A stretch of 64,000 nucleotides of DNA from Flavobacteriaceae bacterium (GCA_024743095.1 JANSXF010000018.1:497-64496), one strand, 5' to 3'. Counted from the first letter of the stretch, positions 12,957-32,035 are shown. A program made the numbers and translations. Notes: generated by a model not told the origin, from the letters alone.

Positions 12957-13529
12957 ATGTCATATAGCGATCAAGAATTACTTTCTCGAATGGGTAGGGA
13001 TGATGAAGTTGCCTATCATGAAATTTATAAGAAATATGCGGAAAAACTGTTTGCGTATGCATTGAACATATGTAAGCAAAGGGAAACATGCGAGGACATT
13101 GTTCAGAACGTTTTTATATCCCTTTGGGAAAAAAGAAAAAAGAATACGATTACCTACCTCAAACCATATCTTTATCAGGCTACCAAGTTTCAGGTTGTTA
13201 AAACACTAAGAAAGCACGATTTTTCACATGAAGAGTTGACTCGTCTGAATTTGGTTGACGCATCATTGAGCATCTCAAAAAAGATGGAGTTTGATGAGCT
13301 ACTTTCACTGACCAACAGCTTGGTCAATAATTTAACTCCAAGGTGCAGACAAATTTTTATTATGAGCAGGTTTGAGGATAAATCAAACTTAGAAATTTCC
13401 CAAGAGCTTGGATTGTCGATACAATCTGTAAAAAACCAAATTACTAAAGCCACAAAACGCTTAAAGGAACAAGTCTCACCTGAACAATTGGCAATCTACC
13501 AACTTCTACTTTTTGTATTTTCTCTTTAG
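12957..13529 (+). CDS. ECF-type RNA polymerase sigma-70 factor (190 aa)
   Basis: Region 2 (..CEDIVQNVFISLWEKR..) and region 4 HTH (NLEISQELGLSIQSVKNQITKATKRL). It sits next to a FecR-type gene. Confidence 0.9.
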   Translation: MSYSDQELLSRMGRDDEVAYHEIYKKYAEKLFAYALNICKQRETCEDIVQNVFISLWEKRKKNTITYLKPYLYQATKFQVVKTLRKHDFSHEELTRLNLVDASLSISKKMEFDELLSLTNSLVNNLTPRCRQIFIMSRFEDKSNLEISQELGLSIQSVKNQITKATKRLKEQVSPEQLAIYQLLLFVFSL

Positions 13530-13734
13530 GAAAATATCTTGTAAGATTTTATTTATTGGATGATTTGGTATGAATACGAAAATCATTATTTGGGTCATGT
13601 TATTTTGATATGTATTCATTTTTAGCATTGAATTTTTGCTTCATTATTAAAAAAAATCAAAAAAACACAGGTACTAATTTTGAAATTTTGGTACTTAGTT
13701 TGTACAAGGAGATTTTTAGCTCTTTTCTAAGCAC

Positions 13735-14865
13735 ATGAAATACTTAAAAAACAAACAGGCCAAAAGCTTAATGGAAAAGTACCTCAATGGGAAGTGTACC
13801 GTTGAGGAGAAGAAGCTTGTTGAGAGCTATCTTGATTCATTTCAAGGAGATACAGGTCGGAATGCTGATATTGACTTTAAACTGGATATCGAGCAGCAGT
13901 TATGGGAGAAAATCAAGGCTAAGACACTCCAAACGAAAAAGACGAAAGTTTTACCGTTGGTATACAGGAATATGATGAAATATGCTGCAGTTTTTATTGG
14001 GGCAGGATTTCTATTGTTCTGGGGCTATAATGCATATAAAACCGACCAAGATATCTTGAATGCTGATAAGAAAGAGATTGTTTTACAAACGGGCCAGGAC
14101 CAAAAGTCGATAGATGAACATACGGTCGATGAGATTGTGGACGAGTCTGGAAATGTTATCGCATCGATACAAAACGGTATTCTCCAATACAGACAAAATA
14201 CTAAAAATGGTGACTTTGCCTTTAACGAAGTTATAGTGCCTTCGGGCAAAACATTTCAAATAGTCCTTGCAGATGGTACATTGGTTCATCTCAATGCAGG
14301 ATCTCATTTTCGATTTCCAGTGGGTTTTCACCCAAGTAAGGGGAGGGAGGTCTATCTATCTGGAGAGGGATATTTCGAGGTTGCAAAAGATGATTCAAGC
14401 CCATTTGTTGTCCAAGCAAACGATATGGAAGTTACGGTATTGGGGACACATTTCAATGTTAGCGCCTATTTGGGGGAGCCCCAGCATACGGTATTGGTCG
14501 AAGGGAGTGTTTCAGTGAATAACCAAAAGACGGATTCACATGAAATCATAAAACCGGGGCAAAAAGCAGTGATAAAGGGCAATGGTATGGTTGTCAATAC
14601 AGTAGATGTAAAAGATTATACCGGTTGGACACAAAATGTACTGACCTTTAGAGATGAACTGTTTCCGAACATTATTAAAAAAATTGAGCGAAGGTATAAT
14701 GTAACCATTGTGAACAACTACCCGGAGTTGGACAACGCTCGTTTCAATGGTAAGTTCAAAAACGAATCGATACTAAGTTTGATGAATACATTCAAGGAAA
14801 GTGCAAACTTTGAATACAAAATAGAAAAGGGAAAAATTGTAATCAATAAAAAAACCAGCCTATGA
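13735..14865 (+). CDS. FecR-family anti-sigma factor / transmembrane sensor (376 aa)
   Basis: N-terminal cytoplasmic segment, one TM helix (AAVFIGAGFLLFWGY), and a periplasmic FecR domain (LADGTLVHLNAGSHFRF..). It lies between the ECF sigma and an STN-domain SusC. Confidence 0.9.
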   Translation: MKYLKNKQAKSLMEKYLNGKCTVEEKKLVESYLDSFQGDTGRNADIDFKLDIEQQLWEKIKAKTLQTKKTKVLPLVYRNMMKYAAVFIGAGFLLFWGYNAYKTDQDILNADKKEIVLQTGQDQKSIDEHTVDEIVDESGNVIASIQNGILQYRQNTKNGDFAFNEVIVPSGKTFQIVLADGTLVHLNAGSHFRFPVGFHPSKGREVYLSGEGYFEVAKDDSSPFVVQANDMEVTVLGTHFNVSAYLGEPQHTVLVEGSVSVNNQKTDSHEIIKPGQKAVIKGNGMVVNTVDVKDYTGWTQNVLTFRDELFPNIIKKIERRYNVTIVNNYPELDNARFNGKFKNESILSLMNTFKESANFEYKIEKGKIVINKKTSL

Positions 14866-14887
14866 TTAAAATCTCGGATAAATAAAA

Positions 14888-14915
14888 ATCGGGAAGTGGT
14901 GCAACACTTCCCGAT
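14888..14915 (+). terminator. Perfect 11-bp stem hairpin between fecR and susC (terminator or insulator candidate)
   Basis: atcgggaagtg-gtgcaa-cacttcccgat, read directly, 23 nt after the fecR stop. No clean T tract follows, so function is uncertain. Confidence 0.45.
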
Positions 14916-14968: not shown

Positions 14969-17900
14969 ATGCAAAAAAAGGATTGGTTCCCAGCAATGCT
15001 TGGGAATATTCTTAACAAGAATCGAACTATGAAGGTTTCATTTGTTCTTTTGGTATTTGCTTTGCTAAATGTTCAAGCAAATTCATTTTCGCAGAATGCC
15101 AAAATAAATTTGAACATAGAAAATGAGACTGTCCAGAGTGTTTTGGAACAAATAGAGTCTAAAAGTGATTTTAGATTTTTCTATAGAAGCGGGGAAATAG
15201 ATGGTACCAGAACCGTGACCTTCAACGTAAAGAACAAGAAAATATCATATGTTCTAAACCTGATGTTCAAGGGAAGGCCTGTCACATATTCTCTAGTTGA
15301 TAATCAAATTGTATTAAAACGAACTACTTCTAGGAAAATAGATGAAGAGGTTGCAAAAAACGTAATCAAAAGCCCTTTGCGGGAAAAGCCCTCTGATCAA
15401 TTTACCGTTAGCGGTACTGTTACAGATAACCAAGGGGTTCCCATTCCTGGGGTCAATATATTGGAGCAGGGAACTACAAATGGTGTGGCGGCGGATTTTG
15501 ATGGCAATTATTCAATTGAAGTCCCTGGGCCTGGAACGGTACTTGTTTTCAGTTCAATTGGATTTGCAGCCCAACAAATTGAGGTTGGGGAATCTTCCAC
15601 ACTTAATGTTGTTTTACAGGAAGATTCACAAGCACTCGATGAGGTGGTGATTACCGCTCTTGGAATCAAGCGGGAGAAAAAGGCATTGACCTATTCTGTC
15701 TCTGAAGTTGATGGTGATAATTTCACCAAAGCAAGGGAAATTAATGTCGGAAATGCTTTAGCGGGGAGAGTAGCTGGGGTAACAGCGTCAGCAACATCAG
15801 GTGGCCCTGCAGCATCCAGTCGTGTTATAATCAGGGGAAATGGATCGCTAAATGGAGATAATCAGCCATTATATGTTGTTAACGGAATGCCGATCACCAA
15901 TACCAACCAATCATCACCCGGTACTTATGGAGGCGTGGATAGAGGGGATGGACTCTCAAGTATCAACCCCGATGATATAGAAAGTATATCAGTTTTAAAA
16001 GGAGGTACTGCAGCTGCTCTATATGGTGCTCGCGCAGCCAATGGTGTGATTTTGATCACTACCAAATCAGGTAGCGCACAACAGGGAATAGGGGTGGAAT
16101 ATCGTACCAATGTCACATTTGAACAACCGATGAACTTTCTGGATTGGCAGTATAGATATGGTTCAGGTTCTTTGGGTGTGGCCCCTTCAAACCAAGAGGA
16201 GGCGATAGCTTTCGGACGCACCTCGTGGGGCGCGCCACTGGACGGCTCAATGGTCATACAACCAGATGGTGAATTAAGACCTTATTCACCTCAGAAAAAA
16301 AATGTCGAGAATTTTTATCAAATAGGGACGACCGTTACGAACAGTATTGCTTTTTCAGGAGGGAGTGAAGCCATTAATTTCCGGTTTGGAGCTTCCAATA
16401 TGGACAATAAATCCATAGTTCCCAATAGTAGCATAAATCGGAAGACCTTTAATTTAAGCACTAATGCAACCCTAGCAGAAAAAATTCAGTTCACGGGGAA
16501 TGCACAATACACCATTGAAGACGTTGAGAATCGGCCCTTTTTGGCTGATTTTCCCAGAAACCCCAATGCGGGAACACAATTGATAGCTACCAACATAGAT
16601 GTAAGGACCCTTTCTCCTGGGTATCTCGAAAATGGTAATGAAATGCCATGGAGCGACTATATTTATGCTACTAACCCCTACTTCGCCGTAAATAAATATA
16701 GAAATGGGGATAAACGGGAACGATTTATTGGTTCCTTTACTACAAGATACAATTTTACCGACCACCTATATGCCCGAGTCCGTTTTGGAATGGACAAGAT
16801 TAATGTGGATGGCTATCAGATAGACCCTACAGGTATTGCATTCAATGCACCAGGGAGCATGACCACTGATCAAAGTGTTCAGACCGAAACCAATATTGAA
16901 GGGGTTTTAGGTTTTAATCAAGAGTTTGGGAAATTTACGGTCAATGCCATGGCCGGGGGAAACCAAATGCGAAACACATTTGATGGCATTACTCTTTCAA
17001 GTGGGCAGTTCAACATCCCTTTTCGTTATTTTATTGGGAATGGAAGCAGCCAAAATTTTGATATCAACTACGGAAAGTTTGGAATTAATTCGCTGTTTGG
17101 ATCATTGGACCTTGATTTCAATAACTACCTCTACCTAACGCTAACAGGTAGAAACGATTGGTTTTCAACCTTGGATATTGCGGATAATAATTTGTTCTAC
17201 CCATCTGTGGGTTTGAGTTTCCTATTGACGGAGGCTTGGAAAAGCAAACCAAGTTGGCTTGATTATGCCAAAGTTAGAACTTCATGGGCTCAAGTAGGGG
17301 GGGGCGCACCAACACCCTACAATATTCTTACCACCTATTCTGCAGAATCAATTCCGCATTTAGGGCAAACATTGACCGAGGTGACCAGTGCAACCATTCC
17401 TACAAAATTGGTGCCCTATACATCAACAACTACCGAGGCAGGAATAGAACTAAGAATGTTGAACAGTAGATTGGGAATAGATTTTACGGTATATAATAGA
17501 ACCACCACCGATGATATAGTAAATGCTTCCATAGCACCTTCCAGTGGTTATGATGATGTAGCCCTTAATGCTGGTAAAATGGAAAATAAGGGTGTTGAAT
17601 TAATGGTTTCGGGAACTCCAATTACTTCTGAAAATGGTCTTACTTGGGATGCGATGGTCAATACGGCCTATAATGATAATACCGTTATCAAAATAGCAGA
17701 TGACCTTACAACATTGCAATTGCCAGGGGCAACCACAAGGACCTTGAACGGTGGAATATACCATTTTGAGGGTCAGCCTTTTGGTATGATTGCTGGAAAT
17801 CGAAAATTGACCAATGAAAGTGGGGAAATCGTGTACAACAGTTTGAGCGGACTGCCTATCGCAGGGCCGAACGAGGCGTTGGGAAGAGGTGTTCCTCCAC

Positions 17901-18415
17901 TGTCTATAGGGTTCAATAACAGTTTTACATACAAAAATTTTAATTTAAATTTTTTGCTTGATAGTAGGTGGGGCGGGAGTATTTATTCTGCCACCAGCGC
18001 TTATGGAACCGATTTCGGTTTGGATAAACGTACCGTTAGGGATAATGTGCGTGAAACAGGGGTCAGTGTCAATGGAGTTGATCAAGATGGTAATGCATAT
18101 TCGGCCACGGTCCCTGCCCAGACTTATTACAGAGGCATAGCTTACACGATTACGGAGGAATTTGTCCAAAAAGCAGACTTTATCAAGTTGCGGTCTTTTA
18201 GTCTTGGATATAACCTACCCAAATCTATGCTGTCCAGAACTCCCATAAAATCAGCCAGTATTTCATTGGTGGGGAGAAATCTTTGGTTGATTTATACAAC
18301 TACGGAAAACATTGACCCAGAATCAAATTACAGTAGTTCCAATGCACAGGGGCTCGAGAATTTTGGTTTACCAACTTCCAGAAGTTTCGGTATTGACTTT
18401 AACGTCACTTTTTAA
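14969..18415 (+). CDS. susC: SusC/RagA-family TonB-dependent outer-membrane transporter with an N-terminal STN signalling domain
   Basis: STN domain (ETVQSVLEQIESKSDFRFFY), CarboxypepD_reg-like domain (VSGTVTDNQGVPIPGVNI), plug (VVITALGIKREKK) and a long beta-barrel ending in F. The start may be the ATG at 15029 (MKVSFVLLVF signal peptide). Confidence 0.93.
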   Translation: MQKKDWFPAMLGNILNKNRTMKVSFVLLVFALLNVQANSFSQNAKINLNIENETVQSVLEQIESKSDFRFFYRSGEIDGTRTVTFNVKNKKISYVLNLMFKGRPVTYSLVDNQIVLKRTTSRKIDEEVAKNVIKSPLREKPSDQFTVSGTVTDNQGVPIPGVNILEQGTTNGVAADFDGNYSIEVPGPGTVLVFSSIGFAAQQIEVGESSTLNVVLQEDSQALDEVVITALGIKREKKALTYSVSEVDGDNFTKAREINVGNALAGRVAGVTASATSGGPAASSRVIIRGNGSLNGDNQPLYVVNGMPITNTNQSSPGTYGGVDRGDGLSSINPDDIESISVLKGGTAAALYGARAANGVILITTKSGSAQQGIGVEYRTNVTFEQPMNFLDWQYRYGSGSLGVAPSNQEEAIAFGRTSWGAPLDGSMVIQPDGELRPYSPQKKNVENFYQIGTTVTNSIAFSGGSEAINFRFGASNMDNKSIVPNSSINRKTFNLSTNATLAEKIQFTGNAQYTIEDVENRPFLADFPRNPNAGTQLIATNIDVRTLSPGYLENGNEMPWSDYIYATNPYFAVNKYRNGDKRERFIGSFTTRYNFTDHLYARVRFGMDKINVDGYQIDPTGIAFNAPGSMTTDQSVQTETNIEGVLGFNQEFGKFTVNAMAGGNQMRNTFDGITLSSGQFNIPFRYFIGNGSSQNFDINYGKFGINSLFGSLDLDFNNYLYLTLTGRNDWFSTLDIADNNLFYPSVGLSFLLTEAWKSKPSWLDYAKVRTSWAQVGGGAPTPYNILTTYSAESIPHLGQTLTEVTSATIPTKLVPYTSTTTEAGIELRMLNSRLGIDFTVYNRTTTDDIVNASIAPSSGYDDVALNAGKMENKGVELMVSGTPITSENGLTWDAMVNTAYNDNTVIKIADDLTTLQLPGATTRTLNGGIYHFEGQPFGMIAGNRKLTNESGEIVYNSLSGLPIAGPNEALGRGVPPLSIGFNNSFTYKNFNLNFLLDSRWGGSIYSATSAYGTDFGLDKRTVRDNVRETGVSVNGVDQDGNAYSATVPAQTYYRGIAYTITEEFVQKADFIKLRSFSLGYNLPKSMLSRTPIKSASISLVGRNLWLIYTTTENIDPESNYSSSNAQGLENFGLPTSRSFGIDFNVTF

Positions 18416-18449
18416 AAGGAATTTTAATTCTTCAATTAAACAAAATATT

Positions 18450-20057
18450 ATGAAACCTATAAAACATCAACACAAGGTCGCTCCTTTCTATGTAGTGATC
18501 ATGATGACATTTTTCTTAACTGGATGTGATTCTGGTTTTGAGGAACTTAACCAAAATCCAAATGCGTACACAGAACCCGATTTTCAAAGCTTGTTCACTA
18601 CGAGTTTGATCCGGACTGTAGGCACTGGTACCACGGATAGAAATCGGACGAATATGAAATACCTATCAGGAGCAATGCAATTTCATGCTACCCTTCAAAC
18701 TTTTTGGTATGGGGAGAAGGGGATTGTGCACCAACAGACAGGAAATTTTTTTGAAACCGTGTATACCTCCCATCTTAGGGAACTATCAGTGATTCTTAAT
18801 GAGACTGAAGGAATTCCTGAGTTATCGAATCAAAATGCAATAGCAAAAATTTGGAAGGTCTTTGCGCTCCATCGGGTAACGGATGCTTATGGGGATGTGC
18901 CCTATAAAGAGGCCGTAAAAGGAAATTCAGATTTGATTTTTAAACCAGTTTATGACAAACAATCCGATATCTACCCATGGATGCTTCAAGATTTGGAATC
19001 GGCCATTGGCCAGTTGGATAACTCATCAGGCTCTTTTGGTGGTGCGGACGTGATTTATGGAGGAGATGTAGCTAGTTGGAGAACATTTGGCTATTCCCTT
19101 ATGCTGCGCTTGGCCATGAGATTGACAAAGGTAGATCCAGGTATGGCCCAAGAATGGGCCCAAAAGGCAATAGAGGGAGGGGTTATGCAAAGCAATGATG
19201 ATTTGGCCAAATTGGAACATACCCCAACAAGTGGAAATACATGGAATTGGGACGGCAGAGAGCTGAAAAGGGAAAGCCTTCCCGAAGGAAATCAAGGTAT
19301 GGGACTCGTGAAAATGGGAAAGACGTTTATTGATCTTTTAAAAGAGAACAATGATCCCAGACTGCCTTTTTACGCTACTCTATGGGAAGGGAACATTAAT
19401 GCAATGCAGTTACAGGTTATTGCAGAAACCACAGTTCCCGAACTACAACAGGGGTTACCCAATGGTTATGACCCAGGGACCATAAGTGAAGCCATTCCCG
19501 GTTGGAGCAATGCCCAATTGGTGGACTATTCAGAACCCAATACGGCTACCATAGCCAATTTCTCCTCTCCATCAATAATCCTTAGTTATTCTGAGGTTGA
19601 ATTTCTATTGGCAGAAGCGGCCATTCGAGGATGGGCACCTGGAACCCCTGAAGAACACTACCAGAATGCTATCCGGGCCAATATGGAATCCTCAATGCTA
19701 TATCCCAACAATGGTATTGCCCCCATGACTATTACCGAGGATGAAATATCAGATTACTTGGCCGCCCATTCCCTTAGCGGAAGTGATGAGCAAATGATGG
19801 AACAGATTTACACACAGTTTTATCTGGCCCACTATATGTATTTGGACTTTTTTGAAGCTTGGTCAACATGGAGACGTACAGGTGTCCCAGAACTAGCACC
19901 TGTCACTTATCCATTGAATACAACGGGAGGGGTTCCTATCCGACGTTTAATGTATTCTTTTGAAGAACGTGCATTGAATCTTGAAAATGTCGAAGCGGCA
20001 ATCGCCAACCAGGGAGCAGATACGTATATCACCCGAGTATGGTGGGACGAAGAATAA
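18450..20057 (+). CDS. susD: SusD/RagB-family nutrient-binding outer-membrane lipoprotein (535 aa)
   Basis: Lipobox FFLTGC, directly downstream of susC, with a size and alpha-helical TPR-like composition typical of SusD. I set the start at ATG 18450 because the track ORF start at 18312 overlaps susC. Confidence 0.88.
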   Translation: MKPIKHQHKVAPFYVVIMMTFFLTGCDSGFEELNQNPNAYTEPDFQSLFTTSLIRTVGTGTTDRNRTNMKYLSGAMQFHATLQTFWYGEKGIVHQQTGNFFETVYTSHLRELSVILNETEGIPELSNQNAIAKIWKVFALHRVTDAYGDVPYKEAVKGNSDLIFKPVYDKQSDIYPWMLQDLESAIGQLDNSSGSFGGADVIYGGDVASWRTFGYSLMLRLAMRLTKVDPGMAQEWAQKAIEGGVMQSNDDLAKLEHTPTSGNTWNWDGRELKRESLPEGNQGMGLVKMGKTFIDLLKENNDPRLPFYATLWEGNINAMQLQVIAETTVPELQQGLPNGYDPGTISEAIPGWSNAQLVDYSEPNTATIANFSSPSIILSYSEVEFLLAEAAIRGWAPGTPEEHYQNAIRANMESSMLYPNNGIAPMTITEDEISDYLAAHSLSGSDEQMMEQIYTQFYLAHYMYLDFFEAWSTWRRTGVPELAPVTYPLNTTGGVPIRRLMYSFEERALNLENVEAAIANQGADTYITRVWWDEE

Positions 20058-20087
20058 TAGTGCTATCAAGCTTTAATAGAAAAGGAC

Positions 20088-21242
20088 ATGAAAGACAACC
20101 GTAGAAGTTTTATAAAGAAAAGTACTGCACTTGCTGCAGGGACTTCCCTGATAGGCCTAACGGCTGCGTGTAAAGAAATATCCGAAAAGGATGAGAAAGT
20201 TGCACAAAAGGAAGATGAAAAAATAGAAAGGGAATGGCCCATTAAAGAAAATAATGGAAGACCGAAAATTTGTGTAGGTACCTCGAGAAACTCGGATAGG
20301 GATACCATGAGAAAAATCAAGCAAATAGGTGTTGACTATGTTTTGATGGGCGGACCTCCCATTCCTTGGACAGTAGAAAGTCTAAGGGAAATAATGGACG
20401 CTTTTAAAGAAGAAGGGCTTACTGTTATAAATATGATGATAGGGGGGCATCCCAATACAATTTATGGCAGGGAAGGAAGGGATGATGAGATTGAAAAAAT
20501 AAAACAATCCCTAATAGCGGCAGGTGAAGCGGATCTTCCGGTAGTTGAGTATAATTTCTATGCCCACAGATTGATGGAAGGATACTATGAAAAGTTAGGT
20601 AGGGGAGGTGCAGGCCACACTGCATTTGATTACGAACCAGTAAAAGACCTTCCAGCAGATGCAGAAAGAGGGGAGCATCGTGCAGAGGATTTGTGGAAAA
20701 ACCTCACTTATTTTCTTAATGAAGTGATTCCGGTTGCAGAGAAAGCAGGGGTTCGAATGGCTTTACATCCTAATGACCCTCCTATCCCTGTAAGTCATGG
20801 TTCGGACCAAATTATGGCTACATTGGAAGATTGGAAAAGACTAATAGAACTAGTGGACAGTCCATCAAATGGTATCACATTTGATTGCGGAGTCACCCGT
20901 GAATTAGGGGAAGACCCACTGGAAGTTCTTCAATATTTCGGATCTAGGGATCGCATAAACCATATGCATTACCGGAATGTGATCTCCGATAAACCTTATG
21001 TGAAATACAGCGAGGTATTCTTGGATGAGGGCCAAGTAAATATGTATGCCGTTATGCGGGATATAATAGGATTGGGATATACCCACGGTATTTACCCGGA
21101 GCATCCCAGAGCTTTAGATTATGACAAAGAACACCCAGAAGGGATAAGAAATCAATATCCCGGAGGTGGTGGATATACGGGTATGACCTACAATATAGGT
21201 TTTACCAGAGCGATGGAATTGGCTGTATTGTCATCAAAATGA
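20088..21242 (+). CDS. UxuA-family (mannonate dehydratase-like, xylose-isomerase-like TIM barrel) protein with a twin-arginine leader; divergent paralog 1
   Basis: N-terminus MKDNRRSFIKKSTALAAGTSLIGLTAAC (Tat motif RRxFxK, h-region, possible lipobox Cys). The body aligns by eye with E. coli UxuA, for example FLNEVIPVAEKAGVRMALHPNDPP versus [24 protein letters not shown], and EGQVNMYAVM versus NGDVDMYEVV. Confidence 0.8.
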   Translation: MKDNRRSFIKKSTALAAGTSLIGLTAACKEISEKDEKVAQKEDEKIEREWPIKENNGRPKICVGTSRNSDRDTMRKIKQIGVDYVLMGGPPIPWTVESLREIMDAFKEEGLTVINMMIGGHPNTIYGREGRDDEIEKIKQSLIAAGEADLPVVEYNFYAHRLMEGYYEKLGRGGAGHTAFDYEPVKDLPADAERGEHRAEDLWKNLTYFLNEVIPVAEKAGVRMALHPNDPPIPVSHGSDQIMATLEDWKRLIELVDSPSNGITFDCGVTRELGEDPLEVLQYFGSRDRINHMHYRNVISDKPYVKYSEVFLDEGQVNMYAVMRDIIGLGYTHGIYPEHPRALDYDKEHPEGIRNQYPGGGGYTGMTYNIGFTRAMELAVLSSK

Positions 21243-25194: not shown

Positions 25195-25222
25195 TTAATA
25201 GTAGTGGCTATTGTTTAGTTAA

Positions 25223-25257
25223 GGTAGTCCATGATAGAATACCCGTCATGGGCTACC
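25223..25257 (+). terminator. 12-bp stem hairpin (one G-U pair) after the enolase-family gene
   Basis: ggtagtccatga-N11-tcatgggctacc, read directly, about 30 nt after the stop at 25194. It has no strong T tract. Confidence 0.4.
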
Positions 25258-25292
25258 ATAAAACATTTGTTGAATCAATACAGAATTTAAAT

Positions 25293-26234
25293 ATGAAAAA
25301 ATCTAGCATGTTTTTGGTGTTATTTATTTGTTTAATGGGCCAATCGGGCATAAAGGCCCAAAAAGTGGGTTCATCGCCAGAATATATAAAGGCACTTACA
25401 CAAGAATGGGAGGGAGAACGTTTCAATGACGGAAGGCCCAAGGTTTCCGATGCACTATTGGAGCGCTTAAAAAAGATCAGGATCGAGGAGGCCTGGGGCT
25501 ATCTACGGGGCAAAGGGTATAACAACCAATATGAAGGTGGTTGGAAAATCATTCACCCGGAGGGAGTAATGACCGGTCGTATTGTCACGGCGCAATATAT
25601 GCCGCTCAGGCCAGATCTCGACCAATATATAAAGTTGCAGGGCGCCAAAGAAAAAAGGGATACCATAGGAGGGAGCAATTCCTGGCCTATTGAAATTTTG
25701 GTCAAAGGAGATGTTTATGTAGCGGATGGTTACGGAAGAATCATCGATGGAACACTGATCGGTTCCAATTTAGGGAATGCTATATATGCAAATTCCCAAA
25801 ATGGAGTTGTTTTTGACGGTGGCGTCAGGGATTTGGGAGGATTACTGGAAATTGAAGGGTTCAATGGATGGTACCGTGACGAAGATCCTTCTTACTTGCA
25901 AGAGCAAATGCTGACATCCATTAATGCCCCCATTCGCATAGGAAGGGCAACCGTACTGCCAGGTGATGTAGTTTTGGCCAATAGGCACGGAACTATTTTT
26001 ATACCATCCCACCATGTTGCGGAACTGGTAATTTCTTCGGAAGTAGTTGCTTTGAGGGATGAATTTGGGTTTCAGAGGTTACGGGAAAAAACGTATACCG
26101 CCGGTCAAATAGATACTAAATGGACTTCAGATATAAAATCGGATTTTATAGGCTGGTTGAAGGATTACCCGGATAGTAAACTACCCATGACCAGAAAAGA
26201 ACTGGACGCTCATTTAAAAAAGAAAGATTACTAA
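25293..26234 (+). CDS. RraA-family (RraA / HMG-CHA aldolase fold) protein with a Sec signal peptide
   Basis: Signal MKKSSMFLVLFICLMGQSGIKAQ. The core VKGDVYVADGYGRIIDGTLIGSNLGNAIYANSQNGVVFDGGVRD..VLPGDVVLANRHGTIFIP matches the RraA-like GDV..D..G..G..RD pattern. I set the start at ATG 25293. Confidence 0.65.
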   Translation: MKKSSMFLVLFICLMGQSGIKAQKVGSSPEYIKALTQEWEGERFNDGRPKVSDALLERLKKIRIEEAWGYLRGKGYNNQYEGGWKIIHPEGVMTGRIVTAQYMPLRPDLDQYIKLQGAKEKRDTIGGSNSWPIEILVKGDVYVADGYGRIIDGTLIGSNLGNAIYANSQNGVVFDGGVRDLGGLLEIEGFNGWYRDEDPSYLQEQMLTSINAPIRIGRATVLPGDVVLANRHGTIFIPSHHVAELVISSEVVALRDEFGFQRLREKTYTAGQIDTKWTSDIKSDFIGWLKDYPDSKLPMTRKELDAHLKKKDY

Positions 26235-26243
26235 TTTTTTAAT

Positions 26244-26687
26244 ATGAAGAAGTTGTTTTTACCCATCCTTCTGGTCAGTATTTCTGTTATGTCCTGTACC
26301 ACTTCAACAAAAGGTCAAAAACTAAATAAGGATATGGTACTGGATATTCTGGAACAATTTGATGGGGCCATTATAACAAGGGATGCTGAGGTTTTGTCAT
26401 CACTAGCATCTGAAGACTTGACTTACGGACATTCCAGTGGTAAAATACAGGACAAAGAAGAATTTGTCAATGATGTGGTGAACGGGCCCTTTCAATTTTT
26501 GTCCATTACCAATAGGGACCAACGAATCAAGGTTTCGGGCAATGTGGCGATCGTACGGCACATTTTATTGGCCGATGCGATGGACGATGGCATGCCCGCC
26601 CAAGTTCGGATCGGGGTGGTCATGGTCTTCCAACTTGGGGAGAGTGGTCGTATATCGCTACTTGCCCGTCAGGCCTTTAAGATATGA
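26244..26687 (+). CDS. SnoaL/NTF2-like (DUF4440-type) small lipoprotein (147 aa)
   Basis: Lipobox VMSC. Size and pattern (..AIITRDAEVLSSLASEDLTYGHSSG..) fit NTF2-fold proteins. Function is unknown. Confidence 0.55.
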   Translation: MKKLFLPILLVSISVMSCTTSTKGQKLNKDMVLDILEQFDGAIITRDAEVLSSLASEDLTYGHSSGKIQDKEEFVNDVVNGPFQFLSITNRDQRIKVSGNVAIVRHILLADAMDDGMPAQVRIGVVMVFQLGESGRISLLARQAFKI

Positions 26688-26712
26688 GCATGGACTTGAA
26701 GGATGGGAAAAG

Positions 26713-28983
26713 ATGATGGGGACCAATTATTGCCGTAATGGCGATCAGGGTGGCCGGACCCAGGTACTTCTCCTGTTCCTGACCATTTCCCATGTGTTTT
26801 TGGTAGGTTGTACCGGCAAGGACAGGGTTTACCGGGACAATGGGGGGGACCATTTGGTGACGGGCAAGGATTGGCCTGTTTATGGTGGGAGTAGAAAATC
26901 AAAAAGATACTCCCCGTTGACAGGGATCGGCAAGGAAAATGTAAGTGACCTGGAGGTGGCCTGGGTATATGATGCAAGGGACCGGGTCGAGGGGTCCGGA
27001 GGTTCAAAACCCAAGGCCATCCAGTGCCAGCCGATCGTGAAGGATGGGATTTTGTACGGTACAACACCGGAATTGCAATTGTTCGCCCTTCGTGCGGCAA
27101 CGGGGGAGGAGCTCTGGCGGTTCAAGCCGGTCCAAGACCCCCGTAAATACAATATTAGTGCAAGTAGGGGAGTCACCTATTGGCAGAATGGCGATGATTG
27201 TCGAATTCTTTACACATCGGGCACATACCTATATGCAGTTAACGCAAAAACAGGTGAGCCCATCCCTAGTTTTGGGGAGTCGGGCAGGGTGGATCTCCAC
27301 GAAGGCCTGGACGATGGACTGGATATGGATATGGCGCATGTCGGCATCAATGCGACAAGTCCGGGAATTGTCTATAGGGATATATTCATCATCGGTTCCA
27401 GCGTTTCGGAGAAAGGGGATGCCCCGCCGGGAAACATCCGGGCGTTCGATACCAGGACGGGGAAGTTAAAATGGGTCTTCCATACCGTACCGCACCCGGG
27501 CGAGGAAGGATATGGTACCTGGCCCAAGGATGCCTATAAGGAGCATGGGGGCGTCAATAGCTGGGGCGGCATGTCATTGGATGTGGAAAGGGGCATGGTA
27601 TTTTTTGGCACCGGATCACCGTCCTCGGATTTCTATGGGGGCAACCGTAAAGGAAGAAACCTGTTTGCCAATTGCGTGGTGGCCCTGGATGCCGAAACGG
27701 GGGAGCTGGAATGGTATTTCCAGACCATACGTCACGACCTATGGGACCGGGATTTTCCTTGTGCCCCAAACCTCGCTACCATTACTGTAGATGGGAAGGA
27801 GAGGGACGTTGTGGTACAGGCTGGTAAAGACGGATATGTATATGTGCTGGATAGGGACAATGGCAAGTCAATTTTTCCAATTGAGGAGCATAAGGTCCCT
27901 ACAAAGAATGGTCTTCCGGGAGAACAGCCCTACCCTACTCAAATTTTTCCCACAAAACCTGAACCGTTGTCACATCAATTTTTTCAGGAAGACATGATAA
28001 CGGACTTGACACCTGAATCTTGGGCTTATGTTAAAGGAATAGCTGATAAATATGAAATTGGAAACAAGTATGGTCTACCCAGTGAAAAGGGTACGTTGAT
28101 GTTCGGATATAGCGGGGGTGCGGAATGGGGTGGCAATGCCACGGACCTGGATGGGATTTTCTATCAAAATTCCAACAACGACCCTTGGATATTGGAGATG
28201 GAGGATGTGGAATCCAGAAACAAAAAGATGCAAAATGTACAGACTGGGGCCGATATCTATAGGATAAATTGTGCCATGTGTCATGGCGATGACAAAAAGG
28301 GAACAACAGAATTTCCAAGCTTGGTCAATATTGGGGATAGATTTTCTGCCCCAAATATCATATCGATTCTTGAGTCTGGTGTGGGCCGGATGCCAGCCTT
28401 TCAACACCTTTCAGAAAGCAACAGAAAAGCCGTTACGGCTTTTCTGCTGGACTTACCATCTGGAATGCATCCTAAAATGGCAAGTAATTCTAATAAGCCT
28501 GAAACAGATGAAAGGGACGATGTGCCAACATTTGGCTATGAGCCTCGATATGTTCCGAAGGTTTGGAAAAAATTGGTGGATCAAAATGGCTACCCGGGGA
28601 TCAAACCACCGTGGGGGACATTAAATGCTATTGACCTCAATACTGGGGAGTATCTCTGGAAAGTTCCTTTGGGTGAATATCCTGAGTTAACAAAAAAAGG
28701 TGTGCCCATAACTGGAACAGAAAGTTATGGAGGGCCTATTGTAACTGCTAGTGGGCTTCTGTTTATTGCAGGAACAAAGGATGAAAAAATCAGGGCTTTT
28801 GATAAAAAAACGGGAAAGGTACTATGGGAGTACCAATTGCCGGCCGGTGGCTTTGCCACACCTATTACCTATGAAGTGGATAACAAGCAATATGTGGTCA
28901 TTGCTGCAGGTGGGGGAAGAGGACAAAAATCAGGAGGATATTATATAGCGTTTACTTTACAGGAAAGCACAAAGAATAATTAA
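26713..28983 (+). CDS. PQQ-dependent dehydrogenase-like beta-propeller lipoprotein with an inserted mono-haem cytochrome c module (756 aa)
   Basis: Lipobox FLVGC. Propeller repeats include DGILYGTTPE.., YLYAVNAKTGEPI, IRAFDTRTGKLKWVF, VALDAETGELEWYF, GYVYVLDRDNGKSIF and IRAFDKKTGKVLWEY. CAMCH (CxxCH) lies at 28270-28284 and is followed by GVGRMPAF. More propeller sequence follows the haem module. I set the start at ATG 26713. Confidence 0.8.
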   Translation: MMGTNYCRNGDQGGRTQVLLLFLTISHVFLVGCTGKDRVYRDNGGDHLVTGKDWPVYGGSRKSKRYSPLTGIGKENVSDLEVAWVYDARDRVEGSGGSKPKAIQCQPIVKDGILYGTTPELQLFALRAATGEELWRFKPVQDPRKYNISASRGVTYWQNGDDCRILYTSGTYLYAVNAKTGEPIPSFGESGRVDLHEGLDDGLDMDMAHVGINATSPGIVYRDIFIIGSSVSEKGDAPPGNIRAFDTRTGKLKWVFHTVPHPGEEGYGTWPKDAYKEHGGVNSWGGMSLDVERGMVFFGTGSPSSDFYGGNRKGRNLFANCVVALDAETGELEWYFQTIRHDLWDRDFPCAPNLATITVDGKERDVVVQAGKDGYVYVLDRDNGKSIFPIEEHKVPTKNGLPGEQPYPTQIFPTKPEPLSHQFFQEDMITDLTPESWAYVKGIADKYEIGNKYGLPSEKGTLMFGYSGGAEWGGNATDLDGIFYQNSNNDPWILEMEDVESRNKKMQNVQTGADIYRINCAMCHGDDKKGTTEFPSLVNIGDRFSAPNIISILESGVGRMPAFQHLSESNRKAVTAFLLDLPSGMHPKMASNSNKPETDERDDVPTFGYEPRYVPKVWKKLVDQNGYPGIKPPWGTLNAIDLNTGEYLWKVPLGEYPELTKKGVPITGTESYGGPIVTASGLLFIAGTKDEKIRAFDKKTGKVLWEYQLPAGGFATPITYEVDNKQYVVIAAGGGRGQKSGGYYIAFTLQESTKNN

Positions 28984-28999
28984 CCATAAAACAAGAATT

Positions 29000-30121
29000 T
29001 TGAAAAAACCAATAATATATAAAATAAGCCTGGGCCTAGCGATTTTGGCCTTGTTGATTTTCATTGCAACAGCTACTATGGGTAAACTATCGGAGGCAGG
29101 TCCGTTCATAGTACTGTTCTTTGTGTTTTTGGGTCTTGGGTTCAGTGGCTACAAAGCTTTGAAGGGCTATGTTTTCGCGGTACTGATATTTGCAGGGGTC
29201 TGCCTGTCATTGTACTGGCCCGAATATTTTGTTGGAATAGGTGAATTTAAATTGACCAACCTGATCATCCCGTTGATCCAGATCATCATGTTCGGTATGG
29301 GTACTTCTATGAGCATCAAGGATTTTACAGGTGTCATTAAATCACCGAAAGGCGTCCTGGTGGGCGTTGTGGCCCAGTTGGCGATCATGCCTTTGGTGGG
29401 GTACGGGCTGGCAAACCTGAGCGGTTTCCCGCCGGAGATCGCCGCGGGGATCATCCTTATCGGCTGTTCCCCAAGCGGGGTAGCCTCCAATGTTATGGCC
29501 TATCTGGCCAAGGCGAATTTGGCGCTCTCGATCACGATTACCTCTATAGCGACGCTTCTGGCACCGTTTGTGACGCCGCTTCTGATGAAGCTTTTGGCAG
29601 GGCAGTTCGTGGAGATCGATGTACTGGCCATGATGTGGAGCATCACCAAGATGATCATCCTTCCGATCGGTGCGGGGCTGTTGTTCAACCACCTGCTGCA
29701 CGGTAGGACCAAATGGTTGGACAAAGCTATGCCCCTGGTGTCCATGCTGGCCATAGGGCTGATCATCATCGTGATCACGGCAGCGGGCAGGGACAGCTTA
29801 CTGGAGATAGGCGCGCTGCTTCTGCTGTTGGTACTGGTGCACAATCTTTTCGGGTATACCCTGGGGTATTGGTTCGCGAGGCTTGTGGGCATGGACGAGC
29901 GCGATTCCAGGACGATCTCCATCGAGGTCGGGATGCAGAACGGGGGGCTCGCCTCGGGAATAGCGAACACCCTGGGGAAGATAGCGACCATGGGGCTTGC
30001 CCCCGCGGTGTTCGGTCCGTTGATGAACATCACGGGATCGATATTGGCCTCGTACTGGCACAGGGACATACCCGGTGACGGTGCGCAGACCACTGAAAGT
30101 TTAGGGAAAAAAGAGCAATAA
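29000..30121 (+). CDS. Bile acid:sodium symporter (BASS/SBF) family transporter (373 aa if the TTG start is used)
   Basis: About 10 TM helices with the SBF core GCSPSGVASNVMAYLAKANLALSITITSIATLLAPFVTPLL. The track start at 29000 is TTG. An internal ATG at about 29078 is an alternative start. Confidence 0.8.
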   Translation: MKKPIIYKISLGLAILALLIFIATATMGKLSEAGPFIVLFFVFLGLGFSGYKALKGYVFAVLIFAGVCLSLYWPEYFVGIGEFKLTNLIIPLIQIIMFGMGTSMSIKDFTGVIKSPKGVLVGVVAQLAIMPLVGYGLANLSGFPPEIAAGIILIGCSPSGVASNVMAYLAKANLALSITITSIATLLAPFVTPLLMKLLAGQFVEIDVLAMMWSITKMIILPIGAGLLFNHLLHGRTKWLDKAMPLVSMLAIGLIIIVITAAGRDSLLEIGALLLLLVLVHNLFGYTLGYWFARLVGMDERDSRTISIEVGMQNGGLASGIANTLGKIATMGLAPAVFGPLMNITGSILASYWHRDIPGDGAQTTESLGKKEQ

Positions 30122-30222
30122 TGTTAGTTGTTTGGTTTAGTTGACCGGGAAGGACGTGCAAGCTCTTGAGGGTACGTTCTTCCTTTTTTACAAGGACAAG
30201 GGATTAAAACTAAAATTAAAGA

Positions 30223-31284
30223 ATGGAAAATATAGGGAAGAAAAAAGTAGTAACGTTCGGCGAGATCATGTTGAGGTTGGCCCCTTCGGGGTTCCTCCGG
30301 TTCTCGCAGGCCAACAGTTTCGATGCGGTGTACGGGGGCGGGGAGTCCAATGTAGCGGTGTCCCTTGCGAACTATGGTGTCGCGGTGGACTTTGTGACGC
30401 GCCTTCCGAGGAACGATATCGGTGAGTGCGCGCTGATGGAGATGCGCAAGCGCGGGGTGGGCACGGACAATATCATCTATGGCGGGGACCGTCTGGGGAT
30501 CTATTTTCTGGAGACGGGTGCGGTAAGCCGTGGGAGCAAGGTGGTCTACGACCGGGCGCATTCGGCCATGGCGGAGATGGAGAAGGGCATGGTTGACTGG
30601 GAATCGGTCTTCAAGGGCGTGGAATGGTTCCATTGGACCGGTATTACCCCGGCGATATCGCAGGGAGCTGCGGACGCCTGTCTTGAAGCCGTAAAAGCGG
30701 CCAGCGATATGGGGGTGACCATATCCACCGACCTGAACTACCGGGCCAAGCTTTGGCAATACTGTGATGAGGCCGAACGGGAGGAGATCATGTCGGGGCT
30801 CACCTCGTACTGTGATATTGTCCTGGGCAACGAGGAGGACGCGGAAAAGCACTTTGGGATCAAGCCAGGGGGGCTTGACATCACCACGCAGGGGGAACAT
30901 GTGAAGGCGGAGGCCTTTCTTTCGGTCTGCAAGCAGATGATGGAGCGTTTTCCAAGGGCGAAGAAAGTGATCACGACCCTGAGGGGATCGCTATCCGCCT
31001 CGCACAATACCTGGGCCGGAGTGCTGTATGACGGAAGGACGATGTACAAGTCCCGTGAGTACCAGATCACGCACATCGTGGACCGCGTGGGCGGCGGGGA
31101 TTCCTTTATGGGCGGATTGATCTACGGGCTGCTCAAATACCCCGGAGAGGACCAGCGTGCACTGGACTTCGCCGTGGCTGCCTCGTGCCTGAAGCATACC
31201 ATAAAGGGCGATGCGAACCTGGCGACGGTGGCGGAGGTTGAAAAATTGATGGGGGGCGATGCCTCCGGAAGAGTGTCCCGATAG
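30223..31284 (+). CDS. kdgK: 2-dehydro-3-deoxygluconokinase (PfkB family)
   Basis: VVTFGEIMLRLAP..GGGESNVAVSLANYG.. and the C-terminal VDRVGGGDSFMGGLIYGL anion-hole/ATP motif are typical of Bacteroidota KdgK. eda lies immediately downstream. Confidence 0.88.
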   Translation: MENIGKKKVVTFGEIMLRLAPSGFLRFSQANSFDAVYGGGESNVAVSLANYGVAVDFVTRLPRNDIGECALMEMRKRGVGTDNIIYGGDRLGIYFLETGAVSRGSKVVYDRAHSAMAEMEKGMVDWESVFKGVEWFHWTGITPAISQGAADACLEAVKAASDMGVTISTDLNYRAKLWQYCDEAEREEIMSGLTSYCDIVLGNEEDAEKHFGIKPGGLDITTQGEHVKAEAFLSVCKQMMERFPRAKKVITTLRGSLSASHNTWAGVLYDGRTMYKSREYQITHIVDRVGGGDSFMGGLIYGLLKYPGEDQRALDFAVAASCLKHTIKGDANLATVAEVEKLMGGDASGRVSR

Positions 31285-31354
31285 ATAGCGGGCGAGTTTG
31301 GTTTAATCCCCATGGGGCCGGAGGACCTGGCCCCATGGTCAATGGCAAAATGAT

Positions 31355-32035
31355 ATGGCAGGATATACAAGATTGGAAGTGGCAGGAACCATGGGTGATA
31401 CCGGGATGGTGCCGTTGTTCTACCATCCAGATATTGGAGTAGGTAAAAAAGTACTAAGGGCATGCTACGATGGCGGGGCCCGTTTGATGGAGTTCACGGC
31501 AAGGGGGGACTTTGCCCTTGAGGTGTTCTCTGAGCTGAACAGATATGCCCTGAAGGAACTTCCCGGGATGATCATGGGGGTAGGTTCCATTACAGATGCG
31601 GGGGCAGCGTCCCTGTACATGCAGATGGGGGCGAACTTCATAGTTACGCCGTCCCTTAGGGAGGACATAGCGCTGGTGTGCAACCGCAGGAAGGTGATGT
31701 ACAGCCCCGGTTGCGGGAGCCTGACGGAGATCAACAGGGCGGAGGAGCTGGGCTGTGAGGTCATAAAGCTGTTCCCCGGGTCGATTTATGGCCCCGGTTT
31801 TGTGAAGGCCATAAAGGGCCCCCAGCCATGGACGAGCATCATGCCCACGGGAGGGGTAAGCACGGAGAGGGGGAACCTGGAGGCCTGGTTCGGTGCAGGT
31901 GTCACCTGCGTGGGCATGGGCTCCAAGCTGATCTCCAGGGAGATCTTGGACAATGGGGACTATACCGCTCTGGAGAATAAGGTAAGGCAGACCATGGGCG
32001 TCATTGATTCTATCAGGAAGCATTTAATGAATTAA
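31355..32035 (+). CDS. eda: KDPG / 4-hydroxy-2-oxoglutarate aldolase
   Basis: Class I aldolase TIM barrel with ..EFTARGD.., VIKLFPG (the Schiff-base Lys context) and PTGGV. It lies downstream of kdgK. Confidence 0.85.
   Translation: MAGYTRLEVAGTMGDTGMVPLFYHPDIGVGKKVLRACYDGGARLMEFTARGDFALEVFSELNRYALKELPGMIMGVGSITDAGAASLYMQMGANFIVTPSLREDIALVCNRRKVMYSPGCGSLTEINRAEELGCEVIKLFPGSIYGPGFVKAIKGPQPWTSIMPTGGVSTERGNLEAWFGAGVTCVGMGSKLISREILDNGDYTALENKVRQTMGVIDSIRKHLMN

Follow-up and report, generated by a model that had tools for sequence, protein, structure and literature searches.

Positions 12957-32035 of a 64,000-nt stretch of DNA from a Flavobacteriaceae bacterium (GCA_024743095.1 JANSXF010000018.1:497-64496; the whole stretch is referred to as the window) encode a SusC/SusD locus that contains no carbohydrate-active enzyme (CAZyme) and, in our reading, specifies a periplasmic oxidative and dehydrative sugar-acid pathway that ends in the uptake of a 2-oxo acid. 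We favor this reading, at a probability of about 0.55, because export signals are present at each step that precedes the inner-membrane transporter and because the gene set mirrors oxidative sugar pathways. Open reading frame (ORF) calling combined with Pfam and NCBIfam searches identified 14 genes in the block, all on the + strand and separated by intergenic gaps of 9-205 nt, which matches the gene content, strand, and coordinates described in a first-pass annotation made from the sequence alone.

The block opens with genes typical of a canonical Sus-like polysaccharide utilization locus (PUL). An extracytoplasmic function (ECF) sigma factor (12957-13529; Sigma70_r2, Sigma70_r4_2) and a FecR-type anti-sigma factor (13735-14865; FecR and FecR_C) are encoded directly upstream of an adjacent susC/susD pair, which encodes a SusC-type TonB-dependent transducer with an N-terminal STN domain (14969-18415; STN, CarboxypepD_reg, Plug) and a SusD-like lipoprotein with the lipobox LTGC (18450-20057; SusD-like_2 and SusD-like), the start codon of which was checked and corrected from a TTG ORF at 18312 to 18450. 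With canonical PULs the locus shares this pair, an STN transducer that is accompanied by FecR and an ECF sigma factor, the co-directional clustering, catabolic enzymes with export signals, a transporter for the inner membrane, and enzymes for the final steps in the cytoplasm. In contrast to them, it lacks a glycoside hydrolase (GH), lyase, esterase, or sulfatase, and its predicted exports are acid-sugar dehydratases with twin-arginine translocation (Tat) leaders, an RraA-fold enzyme, and a quinohemoprotein. A Pfam scan of the block and 10 kb of each flank detected no GH, polysaccharide lyase, carbohydrate esterase, or sulfatase domain, which bears out the earlier statement that CAZymes are absent here.

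Four dehydratase-like proteins encoded after susD carry predicted Tat leaders. The three UxuA-family proteins, Uxu1 (20088-21242), Uxu2 (21277-22401), and Uxu3 (22415-23581), start with MKDNRRSFIKK, MKDNRRSFIKK, and MKENRRDFIKK, respectively, and the enolase-superfamily acid-sugar dehydratase-like protein (23695-25194; MR_MLE_N and MR_MLE_C) contains DARRDFLKK, with the RR at residue 36. By reading of the sequence, each of the four RR motifs precedes at least 10 uncharged residues, and the cut-off of the TIGR01409 Tat signal model (16.7) was passed by Uxu3 (18.5) and the enolase (17.4). In public genomes, an RR motif followed by an h-region was present in 62/62 full-length orthologs of the enolase (median RR position of 36) and in 8/8 orthologs of Tat-UxuA. 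The leaders are kept at the protein level across five classes, as MKDNRRxFIKK plus an h-region for the UxuA-like proteins and as a pre-region, RRNFLKK, and an h-region for the enolase, which argues that the leader is translated. Canonical UxuA encoded at the same loci starts with MEQTWRWYGP and is leaderless; its Met1 aligns with a conserved Met in the DAGM motif of Tat-UxuA. The RR leaders pointed out in the first-pass annotation are therefore conserved features that canonical UxuA does not have, and the comparison of orthologs revealed no conserved start downstream of the RR motif, which that annotation had named as a sign of cytoplasmic enzymes. The RraA-like protein starts with the predicted Sec signal MKKSSMFLVLFICLMGQSGIKA, followed by Q, and most orthologs of the RraA-like, DUF4440, and PQQ (pyrroloquinoline quinone) proteins bear Sec or lipoprotein signals. 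When cytoplasmic controls were put through our crude signal test, positives amounted to 1/12 for KdgK and 0/9 for Eda. Export of the dehydratases is thus supported as far as sequence can show.

Two leaders have additional features. The n-region that precedes the RR of the enolase is unusually long at ~33 aa (23695-23800; MKSxLxQIIxxNKxxE...EIxNPxT) and is conserved in ~60 orthologs, which is reminiscent of Tat substrates with leaders bound by dedicated chaperones. In all Uxu1 orthologs, a Cys ends the h-region (LTAAC, AATAC, LSGC), and in Uxu1 of the window (20088-20180) this Cys is followed by the acidic stretch CKEISEKDEKVAQKEDEK. Uxu1 is probably a Tat lipoprotein, and possibly one that is sorted to the cell surface.

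All three Uxu proteins pass Pfam PF03786 (E = 1.7e-42 for Uxu1, 5e-76 for Uxu2, and 3e-87 for Uxu3), and Uxu1 (E = 3e-16) and Uxu3 also pass the gathering score of AP_endonuc_2. NF003027, with a cut-off of 191, was passed by Uxu2 (233) and Uxu3 (266); the divergent TIM-barrel protein Uxu1 failed it (122). In UxuA of Streptococcus suis, a His/Cys/His/Asp metal site and a catalytic His/Tyr pair are drawn from the His of HPDD, a Cys, the His of HxRN, the Asp-His of RPDH, and the Tyr of PGY. The numbering of this enzyme (H311, Y325) fits the alignment of Uxu3 to 3BAN once a 20-residue tag is allowed for. By alignment, Uxu2 and Uxu3 retain the complete set, and Uxu1 differs from it by Cys to Asp and Asp to Glu replacements. 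More than 6900 homologs of Uxu3 were scored, the best 120 of which are almost all ~370-390 aa in length, and source records label the Uxu homologs plainly as mannonate dehydratase.

The best NCBIfam models for the enolase are GalD, gluconate/galactonate dehydratase, and ManD. Its closest PDB entry is 2QQ6, and alignment with this entry indicates that the enolase matches the usual Asp/Glu/Glu and Asp...His positions, which we presume from family knowledge to be the metal ligands and catalytic pair. The adjacent gene encodes an RraA-like protein with the HMG-aldolase fold (25293-26234; PF03737, 58 bits with a cut-off of 24.5), for which we prefer the start at 25293 over that at 25248 because orthologs are 309-318 aa in length. 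Its best match is a protein of Flagellimonas oceanensis (92%), and the window accordingly derives from a marine flavobacterium of the Flagellimonas/Muricauda type. R179-D180 of the protein align with R123-D124 of 3NOJ, an aldolase that acts on HMG and CHA (4-hydroxy-4-methyl-2-oxoglutarate and 4-carboxy-4-hydroxy-2-oxoadipate, respectively), and are invariant in nine orthologs. The only characterized flavobacterial enzyme of the RraA family is FlDet of Flavobacterium sp. UMI-01, which converts 2-keto-3-deoxy-glucarate to alpha-ketoglutarate semialdehyde (PMC8563752). The RraA-like protein is 25% identical to FlDet over 222 aa (pairwise E = 6e-11), with the FlDet sequence having been read from the supplement by optical character recognition. 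The Arg-Asp pair is catalytic in those members of the family that act on 2-oxo acids, and the RraA-like protein probably consumes the keto-deoxy acid in the periplasm. For the block as a whole, PDB sequence matches place the proteins in their folds, and no solved relative has a relevant assigned function.

Downstream of these genes are a DUF4440/SnoaL (NTF2-like) lipoprotein with predicted export and the lipobox VMSC (26244-26687; PF14534, E = 3.5e-13), for which a PDB sequence search returned nothing meaningful, and an eight-bladed PQQ propeller lipoprotein with the lipobox LVGC (26713-28983, with the start corrected from 26542; PF01011, E = 2e-179). A Cytochrome_CBB3 domain is inserted in the propeller at residues 565-635 (CAMCH), and the PDB relatives are quinohemoprotein alcohol dehydrogenases; by its domains, we class the protein as a quinohemoprotein. 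The best NCBIfam subfamily is that of membrane glucose/quinate/shikimate dehydrogenases (422 bits, below cut-off). The block ends with an inner-membrane transporter of the BASS/SBF family (29000-30121; PF01758, E = 2e-40; TIGR00841 243 bits and PanS 228 bits, neither of which reaches its cut-off), a PfkB kinase (30223-31284; PF00294), and Eda, a 2-keto-3-deoxy-6-phosphogluconate (KDPG)/4-hydroxy-2-oxoglutarate aldolase (31355-32035) that passes its equivalog model (NF005499, 368 bits with a cut-off of 275). The kinase aligns with the kinase part of NF041633 (485 bits) and scores 199 bits with NF041332; models for kinases of 2-keto-3-deoxygluconate (KDG) and 2-keto-3-deoxygalactonate (KDGal) rank best, all below their cut-offs. 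A KDPG aldolase is thus paired with a KDG-kinase-like protein (hereafter KdgK), as in a semi-phosphorylative Entner-Doudoroff or KDG module.

Relatives of the RraA-like protein occur in at least 597 representative species, and we mapped the window proteins onto the 80 best-scoring loci and 6 others (86 in total). RraA was found in 82, the enolase in 77, BASS in 42, SusC in 35, SusD in 32, FecR and DUF4440 in 28 each, UxuA-like proteins in 17, PQQ in 14, KdgK in 12, and Eda in 9. The enolase and RraA-like genes are adjacent in 77 of the 82 loci, and the commonest architecture is sigma-FecR-SusC-SusD-enolase-RraA-DUF4440-BASS. The invariant core consists of the Tat-enolase and the RraA-like protein, usually with DUF4440 and BASS behind sigma/FecR/SusC/SusD, and not of the UxuA, PQQ, and KdgK/Eda proteins on which the first-pass annotation had centered. 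The same gene sets are syntenic across Flavobacteriia, Cytophagia, Sphingobacteriia, Chitinophagia, and Bacteroidia, which argues that the arrangement in the window is not due to chance. Related loci encode BASS, a major facilitator superfamily (MFS) protein, or a Gate-domain protein as the inner-membrane transporter, and KdgK-Eda directly follows BASS in several Flavobacteriaceae, including F. oceanensis, the nearest relative found.

UxuA-like genes and a periplasmic dehydrogenase travel together as an accessory module. Tat-UxuA is encoded beside such a dehydrogenase in 7 of the 8 contexts examined, which feature either a PQQ-cytochrome c protein (5; the window, Adhaeribacter, Leeuwenhoekiella, Zunongwangia, and Parapedobacter) or GMC plus Gluconate_2-dh3 proteins (2; Olivibacter and Muricauda); in the eighth, from Sinomicrobium, the contig stops right after the gene. 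The Muricauda gene is also beside ThuA, AP_endonuc_2, and Gfo/Idh/MocA genes, and in Parapedobacter a gene for a Sec-exported lactonase immediately follows the UxuA-like gene.

The related loci contain further recurrent genes (loci are designated by L numbers). A second, divergent enolase-RraA pair often lies beside the primary pair (L011, L015, L016, L045, L051, L055, L069, L072, L073, and others), with an enolase that scores ~200 bits and has a short Tat leader and an RraA-like protein that scores ~300 bits and has Asp at the position of D102 in 3NOJ; in three Flavobacteriaceae loci, a bicupin and a second PQQ protein accompany this pair. Another recurrent gene, which the window does not have, lies between the UxuA-like or RraA-like gene and the PQQ-cytochrome c gene in other lineages (L004 11723-12700, L042 10951-11922, also L032 and L033). 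It encodes a conserved protein of ~325 aa that is exported and matches no Pfam family, and the protein is 46% identical between Adhaeribacter and a Chitinophagaceae metagenome-assembled genome (MAG). The 326-aa Adhaeribacter protein (locus L004) was considered as an RraA homolog, which the alignment rejects (28% identity with many gaps). Locus L063 bears the label of a Planctomycetota MAG, but it matches the Algoriphagus loci L045 and L055 in architecture and almost completely in N-termini, and its contig is probably misbinned.

CAZymes do occur beside some of these loci. Bacteroidales MAGs have the RraA-enolase pair in an operon with a gene for a GH28-like protein, and there the pair also lies beside GH2, AXE1, GH16, heparinase II/III-like (Hepar_II_III), and sulfatase genes, and in a Maribacter MAG a GH67 alpha-glucuronidase is encoded directly upstream of the enolase-RraA pair. 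The absence of CAZymes that the first-pass annotation had stressed consequently holds for the window and not for every lineage. However, the converse, in which homologous loci would always carry classical CAZymes, was not observed either, as most Flavobacteriaceae and Algoriphagus loci have none. Several Flavobacteriaceae encode KdgK-Eda, UxaC, and canonical UxuA beside the module. The neighboring genes across lineages share a uronic-acid theme, and we consider the likeliest substrates to be acids of the uronic, aldonic, or aldaric class, together with the aldoses from which they derive, that are set free from acidic glycans.

In the Bacteroidales MAGs (L041, L049, L050, L053, L057, L059, L075), a conserved and apparently cytoplasmic gene run precedes RraA-enolase and encodes a HAD protein, a class II aldolase, a PHP-domain protein, a fusion of a class II aldolase with a short-chain dehydrogenase/reductase (SDR), two Zn-dependent alcohol dehydrogenases, and PfkB kinases. 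ADP-ribosylglycohydrolase-like proteins are encoded downstream in the same MAGs. Together these genes look like a larger, uncharacterized sugar pathway.

In the periplasmic pathway that we propose, the substrate would be sensed through the STN domain of SusC, which would signal via FecR to the ECF sigma factor. SusC/D would take up its substrate from dilute solution, as an aldose, a sugar acid, or an acidic oligosaccharide of short length, and deliver it to the periplasm, where the quinohemoprotein would oxidize the aldose (or an aldehyde) and pass electrons to the respiratory chain. The Tat-exported dehydratases, which would be folded and probably metal-loaded before export, would generate 2-keto-3-deoxy acids by abstraction of the alpha proton and elimination of the beta hydroxyl. 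The RraA-like enzyme would handle at least the product of the enolase, either through aldol cleavage to pyruvate and an aldehyde or, like FlDet, through dehydration and decarboxylation to alpha-ketoglutarate semialdehyde. In line with such a pairing, neighboring UxuA and RraA genes have been noted independently in Paenibacillus, with hydratase and aldolase roles proposed for them (PMC12673573). BASS would import the resulting 2-oxo acid, and KdgK and Eda would process any keto-deoxy-hexonate that enters intact.

Several observations weigh against the periplasmic pathway. Protein localization is a prediction from signal-peptide features. None of the Uxu proteins reaches the cut-off of the TIGR00695 equivalog (199.55; Uxu1 92, Uxu2 157, Uxu3 197.1), and the enolase is far below those of the NCBIfam equivalogs (177/311 for GalD, 155/550 for ManD, 91/500 for TalrD/GalrD, and 26/829 for GlucD). 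It is ambiguous which reaction the RraA-like protein would catalyze, as D102 of the HMG aldolase 3NOJ, which is also Asp in FlDet and in the second paralog family RraA2, is replaced by Ser158 in the window protein and by Ser in its orthologs. PQQ proteins are encoded in 14 of ~80 enolase-RraA loci, which indicates that oxidation is not obligatory for the core, and a search for lactonases over all mapped loci gave only two matches, which indicates that a lactonase is not a regular component. KdgK and Eda are adjacent in ~15% of loci (12 and 9 of ~80, respectively), these percentages describe a biased subset because the 80 analyzed loci are the best-scoring of at least 597, and the kinase and aldolase would be partly redundant if periplasmic cleavage of the keto-deoxy acid is the task of the RraA-like protein. 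The genes for KdgK and Eda are also compositional outliers along with BASS, with a GC content at third codon positions (GC3) of 0.70-0.75 (0.75 for the kinase gene) as opposed to ~0.45. The route of the first-pass annotation is accordingly only partly sustained. Conversion of an aldose to an aldonate and then to a keto-deoxy acid outside the cytoplasm gains support from the association of Tat-UxuA with a dehydrogenase and from the one exported lactonase, but the core does not depend on the oxidation. Similarly, the co-occurrence of BASS with KdgK-Eda that it had suggested searching for was found in several Flavobacteriaceae but is infrequent overall, and the imported product need not be KDG because the RraA-like partner probably consumes the keto-deoxy acid.

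The closest known systems share parts of the periplasmic pathway. In Pseudomonas and Gluconobacter, glucose is oxidized by a periplasmic PQQ glucose dehydrogenase, gluconate or 2-ketogluconate is taken up, and the Entner-Doudoroff pathway follows. The likeness is that PQQ-dependent oxidation outside the cytoplasm feeds the respiratory chain and that, after import, a kinase and Eda complete the breakdown of the acid. The differences are that dehydration, and probably the next step too, would be placed in the periplasm here, that outer-membrane uptake would occur by SusC/D, and that the quinoprotein has a lipoprotein signal and a cytochrome c domain within its propeller. The De Ley-Doudoroff, Weimberg/Dahms, and non-phosphorylative Entner-Doudoroff pathways are cytoplasmic oxidative pathways. 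They share with the block the order of a dehydrogenase, a lactonase in some cases, an enolase- or UxuA-type dehydratase, and either a keto-deoxy-acid aldolase/dehydratase or a kinase with an aldolase. In contrast to these pathways, the enzymes of the block are predicted to reach the periplasm via Tat or Sec, the acceptor would be PQQ/cytochrome c instead of NAD(P), and the keto-deoxy-acid enzyme has the RraA fold instead of the DHDPS, HpcH, or FAH fold. The oxidative uronate/aldarate route that involves FlDet likewise combines an enolase-superfamily dehydratase or cycloisomerase with an enzyme that converts 2-keto-3-deoxy-aldarate to alpha-ketoglutarate semialdehyde (PMC8563752). However, FlDet is a cytoplasmic protein of 237 aa with the low identity given above, the block encodes no alpha-ketoglutarate semialdehyde dehydrogenase, and the enolase is nearer to aldonate dehydratases than to glucarate dehydratase.

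We considered four other explanations for the locus. The best placed, though improbable, is a hydrolase-free peeling of glycans, in which the PQQ enzyme would oxidize C1 of the reducing end and a UxuA- or enolase-type enzyme would abstract H2 and eliminate the 3-O-linked remainder of the chain, such that each cycle would deliver one keto-deoxy acid to BASS, KdgK, and Eda; in a uronate variant, H5 would be removed and O4 eliminated in a lyase-like manner. Peeling is plausible as chemistry and would account for the presence of a SusC/D oligosaccharide importer without a CAZyme in the window, for the several dehydratase paralogs, and for the coupling of Tat-UxuA to a dehydrogenase. Elimination of an ether or ester oxygen is within the range of enolase-superfamily enzymes, as in 3,6-anhydro-galactonate cycloisomerase and galactarolactone cycloisomerase, and the former enzyme (5OLC, E = 3e-22) is among the matches to the window enolase. 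GH16 is, in addition, a recurrent neighbor in the Bacteroidales loci. However, there is no known precedent for glycoside elimination by the UxuA family, the scheme gives the invariant RraA-like partner no role, and most enolase-RraA loci have no dehydrogenase. The adjacent CAZymes belong to ordinary exo-acting uronidase families (GH28, GH67), which are a better fit to a pathway that operates on monomers. If peeling were true, glycans would be broken down by an enzymatic principle that is new, and two classical dehydratase superfamilies would have acquired a new use.

It is somewhat less probable still that the substrate is not a carbohydrate and that the (de)hydratases and RraA-type aldolase act on aromatic meta-cleavage products or on a hydroxycarboxylate metal chelator. 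The ECF sigma/FecR/STN-transducer architecture is the same as that of ferric-citrate-type (FecIRA-like) systems, the degradation of protocatechuate is the best-known setting of RraA-family aldolases, and adjacent UxuA and RraA genes in Paenibacillus have been proposed to encode a hydratase and an aldolase for a lignin-derived dienoate (PMC12673573). In contrast, the genes that recur beside the module are carbohydrate genes (KdgK/Eda, UxaC, canonical UxuA, GH28, GH67, and others), none of the loci showed genes for ring cleavage or for an aromatic pathway, and the enolase is closest to aldonate dehydratases.

A 3-keto-glycoside route, which the first-pass annotation had raised as an alternative, appears very unlikely. 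Known examples are LacABC with DUF1080, the 3-keto-disaccharide genes of Bacteroides thetaiotaomicron (BT2157-2160), and the gut 'alternative glycosidase' cluster (PMC9007349, PMC8121099, bioRxiv 10.1101/2024.03.25.586180). As in these and in C-glycoside systems, the dehydrogenase would oxidize a glycoside at C3, and beta-elimination would then fall to the UxuA-like TIM barrels as lyases. The window locus resembles the periplasmic 3-keto-glycoside systems in its oxidation-first, non-Koshland logic and in having metal enzymes of the TIM-barrel type that bear export signals. The clan of xylose-isomerase-like TIM barrels includes UxuA, Uxu1 and Uxu3 also pass AP_endonuc_2, and the GMC and Gluconate_2-dh3 proteins encoded beside Tat-UxuA in Olivibacter and Muricauda are of the families of the flavoprotein and the small subunit of the three-component LacABC lactose 3-dehydrogenase (PMC9007349), with the ThuA, AP_endonuc_2, and Gfo/Idh/MocA neighbors in Muricauda pointing the same way. 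However, the FAD/NAD 3-dehydrogenases, AP_endonuc_2 lyases, and DUF1080 hydrolases of those systems are not found in the window, which has no Gfo/Idh/MocA, GMC, or DUF1080 gene, and the window PQQ protein best matches a C1-oxidizing group. The dehydratases retain carboxylate-directed catalytic sets, with every UxuA catalytic residue present in Uxu2 and Uxu3, a lactonase follows the UxuA-like gene in Parapedobacter, and the chemistry of the enolase and RraA-like proteins requires a carboxylate or 2-oxo acid. Least credible of all is that these are ordinary cytoplasmic hexuronate-pathway enzymes with non-functional RR motifs or downstream translation starts, for although the DAGM Met makes an internal start formally possible and the source annotation is a plain 'mannonate dehydratase', the leaders are conserved across five classes (8/8 and 62/62), Uxu3 and the enolase pass TIGR01409, leaderless true UxuA paralogs coexist in the same loci, and the companion proteins bear Sec or lipoprotein signals.

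A full-text literature search of limited coverage found no publication that describes dehydratases of the UxuA family or the enolase superfamily as Tat-exported, or a SusC/D locus of this type, and the earlier characterization of the system as undescribed stands to that extent. In Maribacter, proteomics revealed expression of a PUL-encoded 'mannonate dehydratase' on arabinogalactan, and sugar-acid conversion by that PUL was treated as cytosolic (PMC11036162). All of the protein families, SusC/D loci, and oxidative pathways are known; what is new is how they are combined, the compartment predicted for them, and that CAZymes are absent. Many predicted SusC/D loci are CAZyme-free and unexplained, and the window locus defines a large, testable class of them that ranges over marine Flavobacteriaceae, soil Chitinophagaceae, and anaerobic Bacteroidales. 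In this class, the dehydration of sugar acids, and probably the conversion of keto-deoxy acids as well, appears to have been moved to the periplasm. If this is true, Tat-exported enolase-superfamily and UxuA-family enzymes would join the known set of periplasmic enzymes, and Bacteroidota would scavenge oxidized sugars by TonB-dependent systems, which would bear on how algal and plant glycans rich in uronic acids, and dissolved organic matter rich in carboxyl groups, are turned over. Confirmation would also correct the blanket labels 'mannonate dehydratase' and 'RraA family protein' on the more than 6900 UxuA-like and 8000 RraA-like homologs scored and provide a function for a DUF4440 subfamily.

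The composition of the locus suggests how it was assembled. The region from the enolase to eda (23676-32026) aligns with F. oceanensis in a single 8.4-kb alignment at 79.7% nucleotide identity, and the locus of that species reads sigma-FecR-SusC-SusD-enolase-RraA-DUF4440-PQQ-BASS-PfkB-Eda. The head of the window locus from SusC to Uxu2 matches the F. oceanensis locus only over 128 nt within susC and is ~70% identical to the locus of Leeuwenhoekiella sp. A16. The window SusC is orthologous to SusC proteins of UxuA-type loci (L004, L005, L014), with scores of 1400-1680 bits, but reaches only ~700 bits against SusC of the common enolase-type locus. GC3 rises in steps, from 0.32-0.41 for sigma to Uxu3, through 0.43-0.49 for the enolase to PQQ, to 0.69-0.75 for BASS-KdgK-Eda. 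KdgK and Eda are also GC-rich in Allomuricauda sp. CP2A (L008), and the bias is therefore not unique to this genome. The window locus is a chimera of two PUL types, in which the enolase, RraA-like, DUF4440, and BASS genes represent an ancestral, widespread module onto which a head of SusC/D and three UxuA genes was grafted, the recombined cassette lying on a tRNA-flanked island that illustrates module recombination.

The left border of this island is tRNA-Val(TAC) (12119-12194, + strand; ARAGORN and Rfam). Its 3' end, GGGGTTCGAATCCCTCAGCGCCC, recurs just 3' of eda as a 22/23-nt direct repeat at 32181-32203, which was located by repeat search and alignment and places the whole locus on a ~20-kb tRNA-flanked island. 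A truncated remnant of an ISL3-family transposase lies between this tRNA and the sigma gene, on the - strand at 12307-12642 (DDE_Tnp_ISL3, E = 3.9e-16, covering only positions 156-239 of the 240-position profile). The island features thus comprise the tRNA border, the direct repeat, the ISL3 remnant, and the compositional mosaic, and no integrase is present. When related loci were searched for the tRNA-Val repeat and for tRNAs, none was found, and the borders are therefore specific to this genome. Two perfect 18-nt direct repeats, CCTGAATAGGAAGAATTC, occur at 12267 and 12328, at the 3' end of the ISL3 remnant, and a second tRNA-Val(GAC) is located at 33533-33608.

A strong bidirectional terminator-like hairpin with an 11-bp stem lies 3' of eda at 32209-32237 and is the sole strong + strand hairpin of this kind; the other + strand matches are weaker and fall within coding sequence, and the hairpin scan found no strong + strand terminator inside the block. 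A scan for sigma-70 promoters, with a model that is ill-suited to Bacteroidota, returned sites no more numerous than in shuffled sequence, and Rfam identified only the two tRNAs in the window, with no riboswitch or further RNA element. The 10-kb flanks encode GltB, an acyl-CoA dehydrogenase, CitMHS, ExbB/D, FolC-like and Mur ligases, an MBL-fold protein, PTPS, a GldJ-like protein, PorV, and others, which by type are housekeeping, transport, and gliding/type IX secretion genes. The ExbB/ExbD genes (8748-9959, upstream) and those for the GldJ-like protein, which has an FGE-sulfatase domain, and PorV (34961-38156, downstream) are probably unrelated to the locus. Four long antisense ORFs of 189-258 aa on the - strand (24223-24807, 29500-30093, 30124-30900, and 31454-32023) lie opposite the enolase, BASS, KdgK, and Eda; they are shadow ORFs and not genes, and three of the four fall within the GC-rich BASS-Eda part.

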